From positions 1 to 7,883 of the forward strand of contig JBAWVI010000044.1 of the NCBI GenBank assembly GCA_037147375.1: a DNA stretch of 7,883 nt. The letters are read 5' to 3'. The DNA comes from an archaeon (GTDB lineage Archaea; Iainarchaeota; Iainarchaeia; Iainarchaeales; CSSED10-239). The translations under genes were made by a program, and so were the position numbers. Positions 440 through 7,846 of the stretch are shown piece by piece; position 1 is the first letter of the stretch; each line of letters opens with the position of its first letter. Below the pieces are notes generated by a model. The model was not told the origin of the DNA, ran no database searches, and saw only the letters and a list, made by a program, of their open reading frames with translations.

Positions 440-2374
440 ATGGTTTTAACAAAAATTGATATAAATAAATTAGATTATAAAGCACTTGGGTTAATGTGCG
501 GGCTTGAACTTCATCAACAGCTTGACACAAATAAACTTTTTTGTAATTGTAGGTCTATCCTAATTAAGGATGATACTAAGCCTGATTTTTCAGTTTCAAG
601 AAAGCTTCACGCTGTTACTTCTGAAGCTGGAGAAATAGATGCAACCGCAAGTCATGAACAAAAAAGAGATAAAACATTTATTTATAAAGGATTTAATTCT
701 TGTAATTGTTTAGTTGAAATTGATTGTCAGCCTCCTCATCAGCCAAATAAGGATTCACTTGTTATCTCAATGATTATTTCAAAACTTACTAATTCAACTA
801 TTGTTGATAAAACATATGTTATGAGAAAGCAGGTTATTGATGGTTCTAATGTTTCTGGATTTCAAAGAACAATGATGATTTCTACAAATGGTTATATTGA
901 TCTTGATTTTGGAAGAGTAAGAATAAATAAGATTCTTTTAGAAGAGGATGCAGCAAGACCAATTGAAAGAGGAGAGACTGAAGTTATTTATTCTCTTGAT
1001 AGACTTGGAACTCCAATGATTGAGGTTGTTGCATGGCATGATATTTATACTCCAGAAGATGTTAAGAAAACCACAATGTTTCTTGGACAGTTATTTAGAT
1101 CAACTGGAAAAACCAAGAGAGGTCTTGGTTCAATTAGACAAGATATAAACATTTCAATTAAAAATGGTGCAAGAACTGAGATAAAGGGTGCCCAAGATCT
1201 TGAACTAATTCCAGAAATTGTAAAAAGAGAAATTGTTAGACAATTATCTTTGTTACAAGTAAGAGAAGAATTAAAATTAAGGGGAATAAATGACATATAT
1301 ATACATGAAATAGATATAACAGATATTTTCAAATCAAGTGAATCTAAAATGATTAAGGAAGCAATTTCTCAAGGTAAGAAAATATTTTGTTTTCCTCTTC
1401 CAAAGTTTAAAGGAATTCTTGGTTATGAGGTTCAACCAGATAGAAGAGTTGGAACTGAGATTGCAAACATCTTAAAAACAAAAACAACTCTTAAAGGTTT
1501 ATTCCATGCAGACGAACTCCCAAATTATGGAATCACAGAGATTGATGTAACAAACATAAAAGCAAAATTAAGTTTAAAGGAAGAAGATTCTTTTATTATG
1601 GTTATCTCATCTGAACTTGAAATAAATTATGTTAAAGAGATAATTGAAAACAGATTAAATCAATTTACATTTGGTGTTCCTGAAGAAACTAGAATGGTAA
1701 CTCCTGTAGGTAACACAGAATATCAAAGACCAATCTCTGGGTCTGCTAGAATGTATCCAGAAACTGATATTTCTCCTATTGAGTTCACGCCTGAGCTCAT
1801 AAACAGAATGAATAAAGAAACTCCATTATCACTTGAAGCTAGAAAGAAATTATATTTAGAAAATTATAAAATAAGTGTACAGCTTGCAGATAAAATGCTT
1901 TTATCAAACTTTGCTCCGATCTTTGAGCACATAGTTACAACTTATAATTTCAATCCAACAACCTTATGTGTCTTCCTTCTTGAAGATTTAACAAAACTTC
2001 AAAGAGAAAAAAAGATTAATCTTGATTATCTTGAAGATGAGGATATTTATTCTTTCTTTTCAAACAAAGAAGTAAATGAAATTCCAAAATCTAAATTTAA
2101 TGATATATTTATTGAATATATTAATACAAAGAAACCAATAATAGATATTCTTACAAAGCATGGTGTTAGTTCAAGCAAAGAAAATATAGATGTTGATTCT
2201 TTAGCTATAGAAGTAATAATTGAAAACAAAGATATTATTCTTAAGCAAAGAGAAAGATCAATTGGTTTACTTATGGGTAGACTTATGGCAAAGACCAAAG
2301 GAACAATTGATGGTAAGATTTTATCTGAAAGTTTAAACAAGAGTTTAAATAAATTTTTAAATGAAAATAAATAA
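440..2374 (+). CDS. gatE: Glutamyl-tRNA(Gln) amidotransferase subunit E (GatE)
   Basis: 644-aa ORF. GatB/GatE-family motifs seen in the translation are GLELHQQL...KLFCNC near the N-terminus, LLEEDAARP, GTPMIEVV and RQDINISI. The C-terminal GLLMGRLMAKTKGTIDGK segment resembles the GatB/YqeY-like tail. Length and the inserted middle domain fit the archaeal GatE paralogue, and it sits immediately after gatD. Confidence 0.93.
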   Translation: MVLTKIDINKLDYKALGLMCGLELHQQLDTNKLFCNCRSILIKDDTKPDFSVSRKLHAVTSEAGEIDATASHEQKRDKTFIYKGFNSCNCLVEIDCQPPHQPNKDSLVISMIISKLTNSTIVDKTYVMRKQVIDGSNVSGFQRTMMISTNGYIDLDFGRVRINKILLEEDAARPIERGETEVIYSLDRLGTPMIEVVAWHDIYTPEDVKKTTMFLGQLFRSTGKTKRGLGSIRQDINISIKNGARTEIKGAQDLELIPEIVKREIVRQLSLLQVREELKLRGINDIYIHEIDITDIFKSSESKMIKEAISQGKKIFCFPLPKFKGILGYEVQPDRRVGTEIANILKTKTTLKGLFHADELPNYGITEIDVTNIKAKLSLKEEDSFIMVISSELEINYVKEIIENRLNQFTFGVPEETRMVTPVGNTEYQRPISGSARMYPETDISPIEFTPELINRMNKETPLSLEARKKLYLENYKISVQLADKMLLSNFAPIFEHIVTTYNFNPTTLCVFLLEDLTKLQREKKINLDYLEDEDIYSFFSNKEVNEIPKSKFNDIFIEYINTKKPIIDILTKHGVSSSKENIDVDSLAIEVIIENKDIILKQRERSIGLLMGRLMAKTKGTIDGKILSESLNKSLNKFLNENK

Positions 2375-2387
2375 AGAGAAAATATAT

Positions 2388-2909
2388 ATGGTTGAAAAGA
2401 AAATACTTTATGCTCCATGGAGACAAGAATATTTAACTAGTAATCTTGAAAATAAAAGTAAATCTTCTAAAACCTGTTCTTTTTGTAACATAAAAAAAGT
2501 AGATCTAGATTTATTAGTTCTTGAAGGAAAGACATGTTATATTCAAGCAAACAAATTTCCATACGCTACAGGTCATCTTCTAATAATTCCAAAACGCCAC
2601 GTAAATGATATAAACTCATTAACTACAATTGAAAGAACAGAATTATTTAACTTAATGGATCTTTCTATCTTTGCACTTAAGATATTTATGAAGCCAGAAG
2701 GGTATAATATAGGTTGTTCAGTAGGAAAAGTAGCTGGAGAAAGTATGCTTCACCTTCATTTTCACGTGCTCCCTAGGTTTTCAGGGGATGTTGGGTGGGA
2801 TCTCCCACTTGATTTCAAAGTTTGCTCAATTTCTCCAAAAGATCTAACAAATAAGTTAAAAAATATAATAATTAAGGAAAAACTCTTGAAAAAATTCGAT
2901 ATTTCTTAA
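2388..2909 (+). CDS. HIT (histidine triad) family nucleotide hydrolase/phosphorylase
   Basis: Histidine triad HLHFHVLPR near the C-terminus, an N-terminal CSFC zinc-type motif, and LYAPWRQEYL at the N-terminus as in the Ap4A-phosphorylase-like HIT branch. The ORF track starts it at ATG 2361, which overlaps gatE by 14 nt. I prefer ATG 2388 (MVEKKILYAPWR...) because homologues usually begin a few residues before APWR. Either start is possible. Confidence 0.85.
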   Translation: MVEKKILYAPWRQEYLTSNLENKSKSSKTCSFCNIKKVDLDLLVLEGKTCYIQANKFPYATGHLLIIPKRHVNDINSLTTIERTELFNLMDLSIFALKIFMKPEGYNIGCSVGKVAGESMLHLHFHVLPRFSGDVGWDLPLDFKVCSISPKDLTNKLKNIIIKEKLLKKFDIS

Positions 2910-3531: not shown

Positions 3532-3699
3532 TTATTTATCTTTCTTTTTCATTTTTTCTTCAATCTCTTTCAATAGATTGTATGCATTTTTAACTTCTTT
3601 ACGTTTTGTTAATTTATTTCTTTTATTTGTCTTGTTAGTTCTTTTACTAATTTTATTAATTAGTCCTGTTTGACCAGGATTTCTAAATTTAAAAGACAT
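3532..3699 (-). CDS. Small lysine-rich hypothetical protein, 55 aa (not in the supplied ORF track)
   Basis: My reverse-strand translation from ATG (complement of 3697-3699) to TAA (complement of 3532-3534): MSFKFRNPGQTGLINKISKRTNKTNKRNKLTKRKEVKNAYNLLKEIEEKMKKKDK. By hand count, 19 of 55 residues are K/R. The - strand is the A-rich, coding-like strand here. The start lies 5 nt after the stop of the upstream small ORF. The stop is 3 nt from the convergent 3022-3528 gene. Confidence 0.4.
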   Translation of the reverse strand: MSFKFRNPGQTGLINKISKRTNKTNKRNKLTKRKEVKNAYNLLKEIEEKMKKKDK

Positions 3700-3704
3700 T
3701 TAAA

Positions 3705-3917
3705 TCATTCCTTTGCTTTCTTAATCTTTACTTTAGATTTTTTCATAAGTTTATAGAATAAGTCTTTGGCTTTACCACTGCGAATTTTGTGTATAACACA
3801 TTCTTTAGAGGATTTCTTTATTTTTTTTGGTAAGACTTTTTCAAATTGAAGTAAGGATCTAAATTTGCTCAAATTTATATCATCCCTTTTGCCATTCCTT
3901 TTGCGCTTCTTAAGCAT
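3705..3917 (-). CDS. Small highly basic hypothetical protein, 70 aa (or 55 aa from TTG at 3872)
   Basis: ORF track entry. By hand count, 27 of 70 residues are K/R. ATG 3917 overlaps the upstream zinc-motif ORF by 43 nt in another frame. The alternative start TTG at 3870-3872 lies 2 nt after that ORF's stop. No family recognised. Confidence 0.45.
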   Translation of the reverse strand: MLKKRKRNGKRDDINLSKFRSLLQFEKVLPKKIKKSSKECVIHKIRSGKAKDLFYKLMKKSKVKIKKAKE

Positions 3918-4078
3918 TTCTTATGCCAATATTGTCCGCCCCATTTTTTATCGCAACCGGGTTTTGAACAAAGCGCACAAGTGTCTGTCTTATACTTGGA
4001 GTTAACTAAATCAATTTCATCAATAGATTTATCTTCTTCTTTTTTCTTTCCAAATCCAAATAAATTTTTTAAACCCAT
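3875..4078 (-). CDS. Small zinc-binding-motif protein, 67 aa (CX2C-X14-HX2C)
   Basis: ORF track entry MGLKNLFGFGKKKEEDKSIDEIDLVNSKYKTDTCALCSKPGCDKKWGGQYWHKKCLRSAKGMAKGMI. C34, C37, H52 and C55 (plus C42) form a zinc-knuckle or treble-clef-type ligand pattern. GQYWHKKC resembles the G-x-x-W-H-x-x-C of the first LIM half-finger. The - strand has coding-like composition. Confidence 0.55.
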   Translation of the reverse strand: MGLKNLFGFGKKKEEDKSIDEIDLVNSKYKTDTCALCSKPGCDKKWGGQYWHKKCLRSAKGMAKGMI

Positions 4079-4124
4079 AATTTGTCTCTTTCTTTTTCCT
4101 TGAAATGATTTTCTTTTGGATTAA

Positions 4125-4197
4125 TAGCCCGAAGGAGATTCGAACTCCTGTCGCAAGGTTCAAAGCCTTGCATGCTTGGCCTCTACACTATCGGGCT
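4125..4197 (-). tRNA. tRNA-Gln (anticodon UUG)
   Basis: Reverse complement folded by hand: acceptor AGCCCGA/TCGGGCT (7 bp), D arm GTGT-AGAGGCCAA-GCAT, anticodon stem CAAGG/CCTTG with loop CTTTGAA (anticodon TTG), variable CGAC, T arm AGGAG-TTCGAAT-CTCCT, discriminator A. It is 73 nt with no encoded CCA and no intron. The D arm resembles other archaeal tRNA-Gln genes as I remember them. Confidence 0.92.
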
Positions 4198-4220
4198 ATT
4201 TCTATTTATTCTTGTGCTTG

Positions 4221-4233
4221 TTATATAATTAAA
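4221..4233 (-). promoter_or_regulatory. Candidate TATA box for tRNA-Gln
   Basis: The - strand reads tttaattatataa, centred about 29 nt upstream of the tRNA 5' end (4197). This fits the archaeal TATA position of about -26/-27 with a very short leader. Confidence 0.45.
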
Positions 4234-4286
4234 GCAAAAGAAGGTTTTTTATATGTTTTTAATGTAAATTATTTAGTAGTATAAAA

Positions 4287-4325: not shown

Positions 4326-4400
4326 GGGAGTGTAGCTTAGTCTGGTTTGAGCACTCGACTGATAATCGAGCGGTCGCAGGTTCAAATCCTGCCATTCCCA
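4326..4400 (+). tRNA. tRNA-Ile (anticodon GAU)
   Basis: Hand fold: acceptor GGGAGTG/CATTCCC (one G-T pair), D arm GCTT-AGTCTGGTTT-GAGC, anticodon stem CTCGA/TCGAG with loop CTGATAA (anticodon GAT), variable CGGTC, T arm GCAGG-TTCAAAT-CCTGC, discriminator A. It is 75 nt with no intron and no encoded CCA. Confidence 0.93.
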
Positions 4401-4401
4401 C

Positions 4402-4482: not shown

Positions 4483-4716
4483 ATGGTGATATGTTTGAAT
4501 AATGTTATAATTCCAGTTAAAGCAGCAACAGAAGATAAAAAAGAAGCTGATTACGATATTTCTGATTTTGATTATGATGAAGATCCAAAAATCAAAAAAG
4601 ATAAAGATGATAAGCTTGATTCTCCAGATGATGAAATAGAAACAACTGAAGAAGCATGGGAAGAAGAAGAAACTGAAGAAGCACCAACAGATTATGATGG
4701 AGATTCAGAATATTAA
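4483..4716 (+). CDS. Hyper-acidic small hypothetical protein, 77 aa
   Basis: ORF track entry. By hand count, about 30 of 77 residues are D/E (16 D, 14 E). The hydrophobic N-terminus MVICLNNVIIPV is followed by low-complexity D/E/K sequence. The A/T box tttaaaatttaatatat (about 4440-4456) is positioned for a leaderless or short-leader transcript, and no SD is present. It could be a spurious low-complexity ORF, so confidence is modest. Confidence 0.4.
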   Translation: MVICLNNVIIPVKAATEDKKEADYDISDFDYDEDPKIKKDKDDKLDSPDDEIETTEEAWEEEETEEAPTDYDGDSEY

Positions 4717-4720
4717 AATC

Positions 4721-4750
4721 TCTTTCTTCTTTTTAATTTTAATTTAAATT
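4721..4750 (+). terminator. T-rich terminator tract merging into an A/T promoter box for the next gene
   Basis: tctttcttctttttaattttaatttaaatt lies directly after the acidic ORF stop. The T5 run fits archaeal oligo-T termination. The following ttttaattttaattt lies about 25 nt upstream of ATG 4762, compatible with a leaderless or near-leaderless mRNA. Confidence 0.35.
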
Positions 4751-4761
4751 TGAGATTGAAA

Positions 4762-5607
4762 ATGGATACAGAATATTTTAAAATAAGACTTGAATCCTTA
4801 TATAATTATACTGTGAAGAATCAGAAGCAATCTCAACTTGGCATGAATTTTTTCATGTCTCACCCTAGATCTAATTTTTATGATTCAATTTCTGAAAAAG
4901 ATAAAGATAAGATAATAACAACAGTTACTAGTTTTAAATTAAGTAAAGATTTACCAAAGCTTCAACAATTTTTTGTTGCAGTAAGTTTTTATTCAAGATT
5001 AAATCTTATTAATCCAGAATACATGAGAAGACAACCATTAATTCATGAAGTTGAAAGAATAAAATCAGGTTTATTTACATCAAAGGCATTTTCTAATCTT
5101 GAAGGTGATTGGTGCAGAAAAACATATGGTGGTTTCTTAAGATCTTTAAAACAAGATACGTTGCAGATTGTAAATGTTGATGTAGAAGGTAAAATGAAAC
5201 CTATGCTATTGAAATCAAATGCTGGTGATTCATTGATTTTTGAGGGTGGTGTTCTAAGTGGATACCATACACTTTTAATGGATCCAAAAACATTAGATAT
5301 TTATTCATTTACAACTTCAGATAATGGTAAGATAATTCTTGAAAGAGGAGTAAGTTTAAGTTTATTAATAAAAGATCATCCAATGTATAAACAAAGATTT
5401 AAAGATATATTAGTAGAAATTAAAAAAGAGCTTCCAAGCTATATAAGATCAAAAAAGAAAAACTATTTAGTACACTATGAAAATAAATTTAAAAAGCAAC
5501 CAGAAAAGCAAGAACTTGTTAAGAAAAGAATAAACAAAATCTTCTCAGAAAAGAACATAAATTCGTTCACAAGATCATTTGGAAGAAGCAAATCCAGAGC
5601 CAAATAA
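4762..5607 (+). CDS. Hypothetical protein, 281 aa, no family recognised; basic C-terminal tail
   Basis: The ORF track begins it at TTG 4750, but I prefer the first ATG at 4762 (MDTEYFKIRL...). It is a long ORF with coding-like composition. The C-terminus is lysine-rich (SKKKNYLVHYENKFKKQPEKQELVKKRINK...GRSKSRAK). No catalytic signature could be confirmed. Confidence 0.75.
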   Translation: MDTEYFKIRLESLYNYTVKNQKQSQLGMNFFMSHPRSNFYDSISEKDKDKIITTVTSFKLSKDLPKLQQFFVAVSFYSRLNLINPEYMRRQPLIHEVERIKSGLFTSKAFSNLEGDWCRKTYGGFLRSLKQDTLQIVNVDVEGKMKPMLLKSNAGDSLIFEGGVLSGYHTLLMDPKTLDIYSFTTSDNGKIILERGVSLSLLIKDHPMYKQRFKDILVEIKKELPSYIRSKKKNYLVHYENKFKKQPEKQELVKKRINKIFSEKNINSFTRSFGRSKSRAK

Positions 5608-5664
5608 TACCTTATTTTCACCTTAAAAATCCACTCAAAGATAACCTTTTTAAACTCTTTATTG

Positions 5665-5727
5665 CCTATATATATTATAGTCCTATAACTAATTTTTATT
5701 AGATAATTTATAAAAAAGAAGAGGGGT
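5665..5727 (+). promoter_or_regulatory. Candidate TATA box (5665-5677) and SD-like GAGGGGT (5721-5727) for the 5736 ORF
   Basis: cctatatatatta is a strong TATA-like box about 60-70 nt upstream of the ATG. gaggggt lies 8 nt upstream of ATG 5736 and resembles GGAGGTGA. Confidence 0.4.
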
Positions 5728-5735
5728 AATTCTTT

Positions 5736-6149
5736 ATGAAAAATGTTGAAAAAGTTGAAGAAACAAAGATTGAAACACCAGTTGAAGAAATTGTTCTTGA
5801 AGAAAATGATGATGCACTTCTTGAAGCAGAGGATGATAAATTACCATTCCCTAATGCAAGAGTTGTAAACTTAATGAGAAAGAGTCTTGATCCCCACAAA
5901 CAAATTAAATCAGTTGTTAAAAAGGAAATGAATCTTTTCCTTGGAAGAATGGTTGAAACCATTTGTAAGAAAATGAATGAGTTTGATTATAGTTATGTTG
6001 ATTATGGAATGTTCAAGCAAGCAACTGAAACATTTGAAAACATAAGAACAATTGAGCTTGAAAAAATAAGAATCATAAAATCTCTTGAAAGAATCAAAGC
6101 AGATTGTGATGTCTTAGTTAATGATGTTGAAAGAAAATTCCATGAATAA
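5736..6149 (+). CDS. Divergent histone-fold (archaeal histone / NF-Y / NC2-like) protein with acidic N-terminal tail and C-terminal helical extension, 137 aa
   Basis: Residues about 36-99, LPFPNARVVNLMRKSLDPHKQIKSVVKKEMNLFLGRMVETICKKMNEFDYSYVDYGMFKQATE, fit an alpha1-L1-alpha2-L2-alpha3 histone-fold pattern. PFPNARVV resembles the P-I-A-P-I-G-R-I-I of archaeal histones and the LP(L/F)AR(I/V)K of NF-YC/NC2alpha/POLE4-type proteins. A long amphipathic alpha2 carries LF...VE.I.K. Residues 1-35 hold 14 D/E by hand count. Residues about 100-137 (NIRTIELEKIRIIKSLERIKADCDVLVNDVERKFHE) look like an added amphipathic helix. The ORF is well supported (SD, composition). The family assignment is by-eye homology only. 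Confidence 0.6.
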   Translation: MKNVEKVEETKIETPVEEIVLEENDDALLEAEDDKLPFPNARVVNLMRKSLDPHKQIKSVVKKEMNLFLGRMVETICKKMNEFDYSYVDYGMFKQATETFENIRTIELEKIRIIKSLERIKADCDVLVNDVERKFHE

Positions 6150-6155
6150 AATGGA

Positions 6156-6176
6156 TTTCTTTTCTTTTTTATTTTT
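6156..6176 (+). terminator. Oligo-T terminator tract after the histone-fold gene
   Basis: tttcttttcttttttattttt starts 7 nt after the TAA at 6147-6149 and contains T6 and T5 runs typical of archaeal termination signals. Confidence 0.45.
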
Positions 6177-6212
6177 AAATTTAAATAAATATTTCCAAAC
6201 AAATTTTGGAGG
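6176..6212 (+). promoter_or_regulatory. Candidate TATA box and strong SD (GGAGG 6208-6212) for the thermosome gene
   Basis: The A/T box taaatttaaataaatattt (about 6176-6194) lies upstream of GGAGG at 6208-6212, which sits 8 nt before ATG 6221. Confidence 0.5.
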
Positions 6213-6220
6213 AATAAATT

Positions 6221-7846
6221 ATGAGTGATAATATTAATTCTAAAAATGGTTTCTTACCTGAAGGTTCAAAGAGAGATAAAGGACGTGATGCCCAAAGAAT
6301 GAATATCATGGTTGCAAAGGCTGTTGCTAATTCTATTAAATCAACTCTTGGTCCAAGAGGAATGGATAAGATGCTTGTTGATGAGCTTGGAGACACAACT
6401 ATCTCAAATGATGGAGCAACTATTCTTAAAGAAATGTCAATTGAACATCCAATAGGAAGAATGCTTGTTGAGCTTGCAAAAACACAAGACAATGAAGTTG
6501 GAGATGGAACAACATCAGCTGTAATAATTGCAGGTGAACTTGTTTCAAAAGCTGAAAACTTACTTGATGAAAACATTCATCCATCAATAATTGTTAAAGG
6601 TTATAAGCTTGCAACAGAAAAAGCAGTTAAATTCTTTACTGAGGTTTCAGAACCAATTTCAATTAAGGATAAACCACTTCTTTTAGATATTGCAAAAACA
6701 TCAATGACTGGTAAAGCATCTGAGTACAGTAATACATTATCAGAAATTGTTGTTGATGGTGTTTTAAAAATTTATAAAAAAGAAGATTTAGATAAAGAAG
6801 CAATCAAGATAGAAAAAAGAGTTGGTGGCTTATTATCAGACACTACATTAATTGATGGAATTGTTTTAGATAAAGAAATAGTTCATCCTGAAATGCCAAA
6901 AGATTTAAAATCAATTAAGATTGCATTAATTAATTCTGCTCTTGAAATTAAAGAACCAGAAACAGATGCTAAGATTGAGATTGAAACCCCTGAACAACTT
7001 CAATCATTTATTGATCAAGAAGAAGCAACCTTAAAGAAGATGGTAACAGACATCTCAAGCACAGGAGCAAATGTTGTTATTTGTCAAAAAGGAATTGATG
7101 ATCTTGCATCTCATTATCTTGCAAAGAAAGGAATAATTGCAATAAGAAGAGTTAAACAATCAGATATTGAGAGAATTGCAAAATCAACTGGAGCAAAGAT
7201 AGTAAATAGAATAAAAGATATTGCAAAACAAGATCTAGGAACTGCAAATCACATTTTTGAAAAAAAGATTGCAGGAGAACCAATGATTTTTATTGAAGGA
7301 ACAAAAAATCATGGGGTTTCAACAATACTTTTAAGAGGAACAAGTGATCAGGTTCTTGCTGAAACTGAAAGAACTTTAACTGATGCAATTGGTGCAGTTA
7401 TCTCAACATTAAGAGATTGCAAGTATGTTGCAGCTGGTGGTTCATCAGAAGTTGAGGTTGCATTGAAATTAAGAGAATTTGCAAAAACAATTGGTGGACG
7501 TGAGCAACTTGCAATTGAATCATATGCTGATGTTCTTGAAGTTATTCCAAAAATCCTTGCAGAGAGTGCAGGAATGGACGCAATAGACACAATTGTTTCA
7601 CTTAGAAACAAGCACCATGAGAAAGGTGGAAAGTTTATAGGTGTTGATGTAATCAATTCAAGAATCTTTGATATGAAAAAGCTTAATGTAATTGAACCTC
7701 TTTCAGTTAAAACACAAGCAATCACATCAGCTTGCGAGGTCGTTGAAATGATTTTAAGAATTGATGATATAATTGCTGCATCCTCAAAGAATAAGGGCAT
7801 GGGAATGATGCCGCCAGGAATGCAAGGCGGAATGGATATGGAATAA
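6221..7846 (+). CDS. ths: Thermosome subunit (group II chaperonin, Cpn60/TCP-1 family)
   Basis: 541-aa ORF. Features seen are [32 protein letters not shown], the ATP-binding GDGTTS motif, [10 protein letters not shown], and the C-terminal Gly/Met tail [16 protein letters not shown] typical of archaeal thermosomes. Confidence 0.95.

Follow-up and report, generated by a model that had tools for sequence, protein, structure and literature searches.

We analysed a stretch of 7,883 nucleotides (hereafter the window; GC content about 29%) from contig JBAWVI010000044.1 of the Iainarchaeota assembly GCA_037147375.1, which carries at positions 5736-6149 a complete gene for a protein of 137 amino acids, preceded by a pair of tRNA genes and followed by a thermosome gene (Table 1). 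The protein consists of an acidic N-terminal tail, a histone fold and a long C-terminal helix. We consider it likely that this gene encodes a coiled-coil (CC) histone of the family described by Schwab et al. 2024 (PMC11390915), the DNA-bridging mechanism included. The product is identical to the NCBI entry MEI8364479.1, which a database search returned under the name 'hypothetical protein [archaeon]'.

Table 1. Positions of the CC histone gene, its parts and neighbouring features in the window, and of selected features at related loci.
Feature	Sequence	Position	Strand	Basis or remark
Complete CDS, putative CC histone	window	5736..6149	+	ATG start, 137 aa plus stop; ORF listing; family by homology
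Acidic disordered N-terminal tail, residues 1-35	window	5736..5840	+	composition, AlphaFold2 pLDDT
Histone fold, residues 36-101	window	5841..6038	+	hhalign, PDB profile matches, PF00808, AlphaFold2 helices, column conservation
Elements of the histone fold	window			LPFP entry motif, alpha1 ~40-51, L1 52-58, alpha2 59-83, L2 84-90, alpha3 91-101
Putative DNA-face residues of the histone fold	window			R42, (N45), R48, K55, K58, K62
Long C-terminal helix, residues 102-137, predicted coiled-coil tetramerisation element	window	6039..6146	+	AlphaFold2, conserved a/d heptads
Conserved upstream motif TTTAAA...CTATATATATTATA, probable BRE/TATA promoter	window	5649..5679	+	similar motif upstream of orthologues
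GAGGGG Shine-Dalgarno-like motif	window	5721-5726	+	sequence
T-rich tract behind the stop, similar to archaeal oligo-T terminators (putative function)	window	6156..6176	+	read from sequence
Thermosome (PF00118)	window	6221-7846
GatE	window	440-2374
HIT hydrolase	window	2361-2909
Two lysine-rich ORFs	window	3532-3917	-	55 and 70 aa
Cys/His-rich ORF	window	3875-4078	-	67 aa
tRNA-Gln(TTG)	window	4124-4198	-
tRNA-Ile(GAT)	window	4326-4401	+
Hyper-acidic small ORF	window	4483-4716	+	77 aa, 30 D/E
ORF before the histone gene	window	4750-5607	+	285 aa
alpha3-truncated histone gene	L021	1865-2068	-
alpha3-truncated histone gene	L022	1976-2230	-
alpha3-truncated histone gene	L024	604-813	-
Nucleosomal-type histone with C-terminal extension	L039	5113-5457	-	Methanobrevibacter
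Duplicated 3' end (last 21 codons) of the CC histone gene	L023	7185-7358	+	exact copy

The gene and the parts of its product

The open reading frame (ORF) and its translation matched exactly those of a preliminary description of the window, which had read the product as a tailed and extended histone-fold protein, and the count of 14 acidic residues (D/E) in residues 1-35 was likewise reproduced. The tail also contains 4 K/R and has a net charge of -10; the whole protein has a computed pI of 5.05, which rises to 8.9 when the tail is left off (residues 36-137). A single-chain AlphaFold2 model of the monomer, built from an alignment of 26 homologues, has helices predicted at residues 42-48, 59-82, 90-101 and 103-136, with a mean pLDDT of 70 that reaches about 94 over residues 111-130 and lies below 50 for residues 1-29. 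The helix boundaries proposed beforehand (alpha1 39-51, alpha2 59-83, alpha3 91-100) agree with this model, and the added C-terminal helix of the same description corresponds to the predicted helix 103-136, whose heptad positions are conserved.

By the conservation of its product, the ORF is a genuine gene and no chance reading frame, since one database contains 90 homologues at E<=1e-23, a wider search gave 129 clusters of relatives, and the fold and C-terminal helix are highly conserved in the family alignments, where the N-tail varies in sequence and length and keeps its acidity. The homologues are mostly 130-150 aa long and come from metagenome-assembled genomes named Candidatus ainarchaeum, Iainarchaeum, Diapherotrites or plain 'archaeon'; several of them carry the JGI name 'histone H3/H4'. 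The family is compact: when 1.84 billion cluster representatives (50% identity) were searched exhaustively with a profile, the 129 clusters were returned at E<=1e-3, of which 94 reach E<=1e-10, and a tblastn scan of the GTDB species genomes returned 44 loci with relatives, in Iainarchaeota/Diapherotrites, Methanofastidiosum, Methanobrevibacter and Woesearchaeota.

Column conservation was computed over 58 diverse family members. Along the C-terminal helix, positions 103, 106, 113, 117, 120, 124, 127 and 131 are hydrophobic in 78-100% of these members, with a spacing of 3-4 residues over about 4.5 heptads, and positions 114, 128 and 135 are hydrophobic in addition; this heptad pattern fits a multi-helix bundle. 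Cys124 was considered as a redox or metal switch, being invariant in close relatives. We dropped this idea because position 124 is an ordinary hydrophobic column of the heptad core across the 58 members (C24/I16/V8/A4, that is I, V or A in 28 of them). Tail statistics were taken from 188 full-length members, a sample weighted towards close relatives, in which the N-tail has a median of 33 residues and a median net charge of -10, at least one tail with a net charge of -5 or lower is present in 77%, and the folded core has a median net charge of +2. With so many strongly acidic members, the acidic tail is, by composition, a trait of the family and no peculiarity of the window gene.

One relative in our representative library, P0091 (276 aa; compare P0107), joins two diverged CC histone units by a continuous helix into a natural tandem doublet. 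Its AlphaFold2 model has a pLDDT of 76, exceeding 90 in the second half, and Foldseek aligned single folds only in this doublet. As modelled, P0091 would be a single-chain pseudo-heterodimer of the CC histone family, a form of which the parts of Schwab et al. 2024 used here (PMC11390915) hold no mention.

The histone fold and its DNA-contact residues

The histone fold is solid at the level of the family, as judged from profiles and models, and marginal from the window protein alone. The protein by itself scored 17.9 bits (E 0.0039) against the Pfam family PF00808, below the gathering threshold of 21.4 bits, in an alignment covering only residues 38-82 (alpha1 to alpha2); it had no match in an NCBIfam search, and phmmer against PDB returned only chance matches to I-OnuI (E 0.34). 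PF00808 was nevertheless matched by 19 of the 58 diverse members (best E 2.9e-8) with no other family recurring, and the member P0088 carries a precomputed PF00808 match. Searched against PDB, the 58-member profile found H2B (2.7e-6), H2B chimeras and NF-YB (about 7e-5; NF-YB 7.4e-5) and archaeal histone A (1.4e-3). Aligned by hhalign to a profile of HMfB-type histones (HMfA, HMfB, HPhA and one further archaeal histone; the HMfB sequence is identical to PDB 1A7W), the family gave E 9.7e-6 and a probability of 83%, and residues 38-101 were laid on HMfB 3-68, which is the entire fold. The top 50 Foldseek matches were all histone-fold chains for the monomer and doublet models alike, with probabilities of up to 0.99-1.00 for the doublet. 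The histone-fold call of the preliminary description was thus borne out by the family profile and by the structural matches; of the PF00808 comparison that it had proposed, the window protein alone fell short of the cut-off and the family-level profiles gave support. DUF3456 (19.6 bits, sub-threshold) was also considered and set aside as an artefact of composition or of the coiled coil, as only 2 of the 58 members match it, over the coiled-coil region.

The DNA-contact residues are in part replaced and in part kept. The RxTxxxxD motif of HMfB (R52, T54, D59) is aligned with Y85, Y87 and M92 of the window protein in the profile-profile alignment, which reproduced the pairing of GRKTIKAEDI with DYSYVDYGMF that had been proposed before; the family has Y, T or Y, and D or M as its consensus there, with Y85 present in 38 of 58 members. 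Relative to HMfB, hhalign placed an insertion of 2 residues in L1 and a deletion of 4 residues at the end of alpha2. On the alpha1 face, position 45 is the counterpart of HMfB R10 and is K/R in 78% of the members but Asn in the window protein; HMfB K13 aligns with position 48, which is K/R in all of them and R48 here; position 58 is K/R in 57% and position 62 in 88%. The earlier claim that canonical DNA contacts had been replaced therefore stands for the R-T/Asp motif of L2/alpha3, which is gone, but on the alpha1 face for position 45 only, the basic residues R48, K58 and K62 being kept there. In CC histones, R32, K35, R45 and K49 of the published sequence logo were proposed as the DNA-binding residues (PMC11390915). 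Their spacing (0/+3/+13/+17) is the same as that of our family consensus R-x2-K-x9-R-x3-K and maps to N45, R48, K58 and K62 of the window protein, three of the four being basic, in a mapping made by spacing. R42 lies one turn before N45.

The comparison with the nucleosomal histones HMfA and HMfB (PDB 1A7W, 5T5K) summarises these differences. Shared are the fold (the E of 9.7e-6 given above), the (L)P entry motif and basic alpha1 residues. Unlike HMfA and HMfB, which are of the fold-only type with about 65-70 aa, the window protein at 137 aa is twice as long, lacks RxTxxxxD, has an alpha2 that is 4 residues shorter and not full-length and an L1 that is 2 residues longer, and adds the acidic tail of 35 aa and a C-terminal coiled-coil helix of about 35 aa. 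HMfA and HMfB wrap DNA, whereas the window protein would be expected, by analogy with its own family, to bridge it.

Membership of the coiled-coil histone family and proposed bridging

Prokaryotic histones were sorted into 17 categories by Schwab et al. 2024 (PMC11390915). Their CC histones were described as 'commonly' having highly negatively charged disordered N- and/or C-terminal tails ('a common feature'), for which autoinhibition was proposed, as being organised in single-gene operons, and as occurring in Aenigmatarchaeota, Altiarchaeota, Iainarchaeota, Methanobacteriota(_B), Micrarchaeota, Nanoarchaeota and other phyla. One member, HMfC of Methanothermus fervidus (Mfer_0945, UniProt E3GZL0), bridges DNA in vitro in a bridging assay, and in AlphaFold multimer models the CC histone tetramer has two dimers that face apart and are joined via their C-terminal helices (PMC11390915). 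Coiled-coil histones form no class in the scheme of Laursen & Luger 2026 (PMC13260811), in which histones were clustered by length and pI.

The window protein belongs to this family because of its homology to catalogued members. Two Methanofastidiosum proteins, at loci L028 and L034, are 52-53% identical to it over residues 35-136 (tblastn, E about 1e-30) and are the exact sequences of UniRef100_A0A150IHS7 and A0A150IVM8 of Candidatus Methanofastidiosum, both of which bear the label 'Coiled-coil histone' in the paper's source data (PMC11390915). Methanobrevibacter relatives are 47-49% identical to the window protein, and the closest matches are named Candidatus ainarchaeum, Iainarchaeum or Diapherotrites. 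To this homology are joined the histone fold, the adjoining long coiled-coil helix and the acidic tail. The window protein and the known CC histones (HMfC, A0A150IHS7, A0A150IVM8) share the histone fold with its long C-terminal helix. The window protein also has the acidic disordered tail common in the family, and an alpha1 face that is basic at three of the four proposed DNA-binding positions; its gene also appears to stand alone, as is the rule in the family, and its host phylum is on the published list. The differences are that the position aligned with R10 is Asn in the window protein and Arg in the family, that the gene is linked to a thermosome gene in this lineage, and that HMfC is without acidic tails. 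The comparison with HMfC draws on its published description and on its N-terminus MEEKLP, which we read from a cloning primer and which matches the (E/D)KLPFP entry motif of the family; a second database search with a broad alignment, aimed at HMfC and the named Methanobacteriales members, returned essentially the same close relatives. The combination of tail and coiled coil is thus already published as the definition of CC histones and the window protein, placed by homology, adds an unnamed member, so that the novelty implied by the preliminary description was overstated.

By analogy with the HMfC assay and the published multimer models, we infer the following mechanism, of which our data show the fold, the membership of the CC family, the conserved basic alpha1/L1 face, the conserved heptad helix and the acidic tail. 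Residues 36-101 form the histone fold, two copies of which would pair head-to-tail as a handshake dimer, as in the family, presenting a basic alpha1/L1 face (R42, R48, K55, K58, K62) to the DNA. The protein is probably not built for nucleosome-like wrapping or hypernucleosome stacking, since it has no canonical L2 R-T/Asp clamp and its alpha2 lacks one turn. Between two dimers, the C-terminal helices (102-137) could then pack via their a/d heptads into a helical bundle, giving a tetramer whose two DNA-binding faces would point apart, so that two duplexes may be bridged as by HMfC. The acidic N-tail, with its net charge of -10, would probably lie back against the basic face, where it may tune or autoinhibit DNA binding. 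From the functions listed in the preliminary description, a bridging histone using its C-terminal helix is backed by the homology to CC histones and by HMfC, whereas capping, heterodimer-only and NF-Y/NC2-like roles found no specific support.

Several observations weigh against this interpretation. The monomer model is modest (pLDDT 70, pTM 0.34; AlphaFold2, single chain), the Foldseek E-values are weak (0.07 or higher), as is expected of an isolated histone-fold monomer, and the 137-aa protein is acidic as a whole (pI 5.05). Moreover HMfC, the sole biochemically tested CC histone, has no acidic tails, and N45 could make the DNA affinity of the window protein lower than that of typical members.

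We also weighed other functions for the same fold. A histone-fold subunit of the NF-Y, NC2 or POLE kind, acting as one half of a heterodimer in complexes for transcription or replication and not as an architectural chromatin protein, could be considered since the best solved-structure matches by profile and fold include NF-YB, HapC, Dpb4 and TAF chains, since the Pfam match is CBFD_NFYB_HMF, and since the LPFP entry resembles that of the NF-YC/H2A type. However, PF00808 includes the archaeal histones, H2B and archaeal histone A score comparably, the homologue HMfC binds and bridges DNA as a homo-oligomer, and the conserved heptad helix points to homo-oligomerisation. Nor is a partner gene present: a hidden Markov model scan of the window in six frames found no histone-fold ORF other than 5736-6149, as the preliminary description had also stated. 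We regard a subunit of this kind as very unlikely. Eukaryotic H2B and NF-YB, best matched among solved structures, also carry a helix (alphaC) after alpha3, but the matches span alpha1 to alpha3 only, and theirs are obligate heterodimers with a short alphaC packed on the fold.

It is highly improbable, in our judgement, that the protein is a wrapping or capping variant of nucleosomal type that joins or ends the hypernucleosomes of another histone and bears a eukaryote-like tail. The fold is a genuine histone fold and other histones do coexist with the family, in distant Iainarchaeota loci at 4-5 kb and in a Methanobrevibacter locus at 0.5 kb; against this stand the change of R52/T54/D59 of HMfB to Y/Y/M, the shortened alpha2 and lengthened L1, a tail that is acidic and not basic, and the extra helix of 35 residues directly after alpha3, at the site of the stacking and four-helix-bundle interface. 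Loss of DNA binding, leaving an acidic histone-fold scaffold or co-factor that is possibly linked to the thermosome, would agree with the whole-protein pI, with the loss of one alpha1 arginine (N45) and with the place of the gene next to that of the thermosome, which it directly precedes in about 20 related loci, five of them with spacers of about 12-20 nt. Yet with a pI of 8.9 the folded part is basic, its alpha1/L1 positions 48 and 62 show 88-100% conservation, family members from Methanofastidiosum, Methanobrevibacter and Woesearchaeota lack the thermosome adjacency, and in the window itself 71 nt with a T-tract separate the two genes; we give this scaffold reading hardly any credence.

Two known kinds of histone resemble the proposed CC histone in architecture. 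MJ1647, the bridging histone of Methanococcales (Ofer et al. 2023, PMC10516927, as related in PMC11390915), combines a histone-fold dimer with a C-terminal tetramerisation element and opposed DNA faces. By its description in PMC11390915, which is the basis on which we set it apart, MJ1647 has little sequence similarity and another type of C-terminal domain and is confined to Methanococcales, whereas the relatives of the window protein come from Iainarchaeota, Methanofastidiosa, Methanobrevibacter and Woesearchaeota and not from Methanococcales. The RdgC histones of Bacillus and Halobacteria have a histone fold, a long C-terminal helix and a predicted tetrameric bundle, but are described as 15-20% identical to CC histones and as always lying in an operon, of which theirs is the first gene, with an RdgC-like and a specific transmembrane protein (PMC11390915). 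These operon neighbours are absent at the window gene, which has the thermosome downstream and ORFs without a family and tRNA genes upstream, and we found no RdgC-like gene within 10 kb of it.

Neighbouring genes and the thermosome linkage

The roughly 30-nt AT-rich motif that precedes the histone gene (TTTAAAGGCTTCTATACCTATATATATTATA in relatives) is kept in loci whose histones are 68-83% identical to that of the window and is probably the gene's BRE/TATA promoter, judging from this conservation. Between the histone stop and the thermosome lie 71 nt (6150-6220), and the T-tract is inside this spacer. Together, the AT-rich motif, the GAGGGG and the T-tract fit a stand-alone transcription unit in the window genome. 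In about 20 Iainarchaeota loci the thermosome gene follows the histone gene immediately, and at five of these (L008, L009, L014, L016, L019) the spacer to the thermosome start is only about 12-20 nt, a distance that suggests co-transcription of the two genes there. As a trait of the whole family this linkage was rejected: it is confined to the Iainarchaeota clade and represents lineage synteny, because it is absent from the loci of Methanofastidiosum, Methanobrevibacter and Woesearchaeota.

The tRNA-Gln/tRNA-Ile pair is found at the equivalent place in relatives, and the mechanically called ORFs at 4105-4284 and nearby are artefacts since they overlap the tRNA genes. The hyper-acidic small ORF that follows the pair has no Pfam family. 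In six relatives (L002-L007) about 120-190 nt separate an acidic mini-ORF of 52-57 aa, marked by the conserved motif DYDxS[DE][FY]DYDEDPKxKK, from the CC histone gene downstream of it. The product of this mini-ORF may serve the histone as an acidic partner or chaperone, or the mini-ORF may be a mere conserved neighbour. Between the acidic mini-ORF and the histone gene of the window lies the 285-aa ORF, which has no Pfam or NCBIfam match. This ORF looks like a strain-level insertion downstream of the tRNA pair, since it is present on contigs with an identical histone (254-281 aa there) and absent from all 44 related species loci. On the other side of the tRNA genes, the product of the Cys/His-rich ORF (...CALCSKPGCDKKWGGQYWHKKC...) is 73-86% identical in relatives over its C-terminal 44 aa and has a weak PHD-like zinc-finger match (E 7e-4, below the cut-off); the two lysine-rich ORFs adjoin it.

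Other histone types coexist with CC histones, as indicated by the loci L021, L022, L024 and L039 and by PMC11390915. In three distant Iainarchaeota loci (L021, L022, L024), alpha3-truncated histone genes of the face-to-face type, ending ...GGRKTVKPFDF, lie 4-5 kb from the CC histone gene, and in Methanobrevibacter (L039) the nucleosomal-type gene lies 0.5 kb from it in divergent orientation. On contig CAYUKR010000004.1 (GCA_964445425.1) we found no canonical histone partner within 10 kb. At L023 the intact CC histone gene is followed, about 870 nt downstream, by an exact duplicate of its final 21 codons (LEKIKADCDSLARDVDRKFEV), which may be the footprint of an insertion or rearrangement.

We also considered a possible Iainarchaeota module of acidic mini-protein, CC histone and thermosome, in which DNA bridging would be co-regulated with a heat-shock chaperonin and the mini-protein or the tail would act as antagonist or chaperone. 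We consider such a module unlikely; if true, it would be a stress-responsive chromatin compaction switch in an archaeon with a reduced genome. For the family as a whole, CC histones are a recently recognised branch of non-wrapping histones of which one member (HMfC) has been tested. A tailed member from the DPANN archaea adds little to this concept and is a clean example for the role of acidic tails, for instance in autoinhibition of bridging. In annotation, the name coiled-coil histone can be given to MEI8364479.1 and to about 90 of its close relatives, and the architecture of this family proved recoverable by reading the sequence alone.

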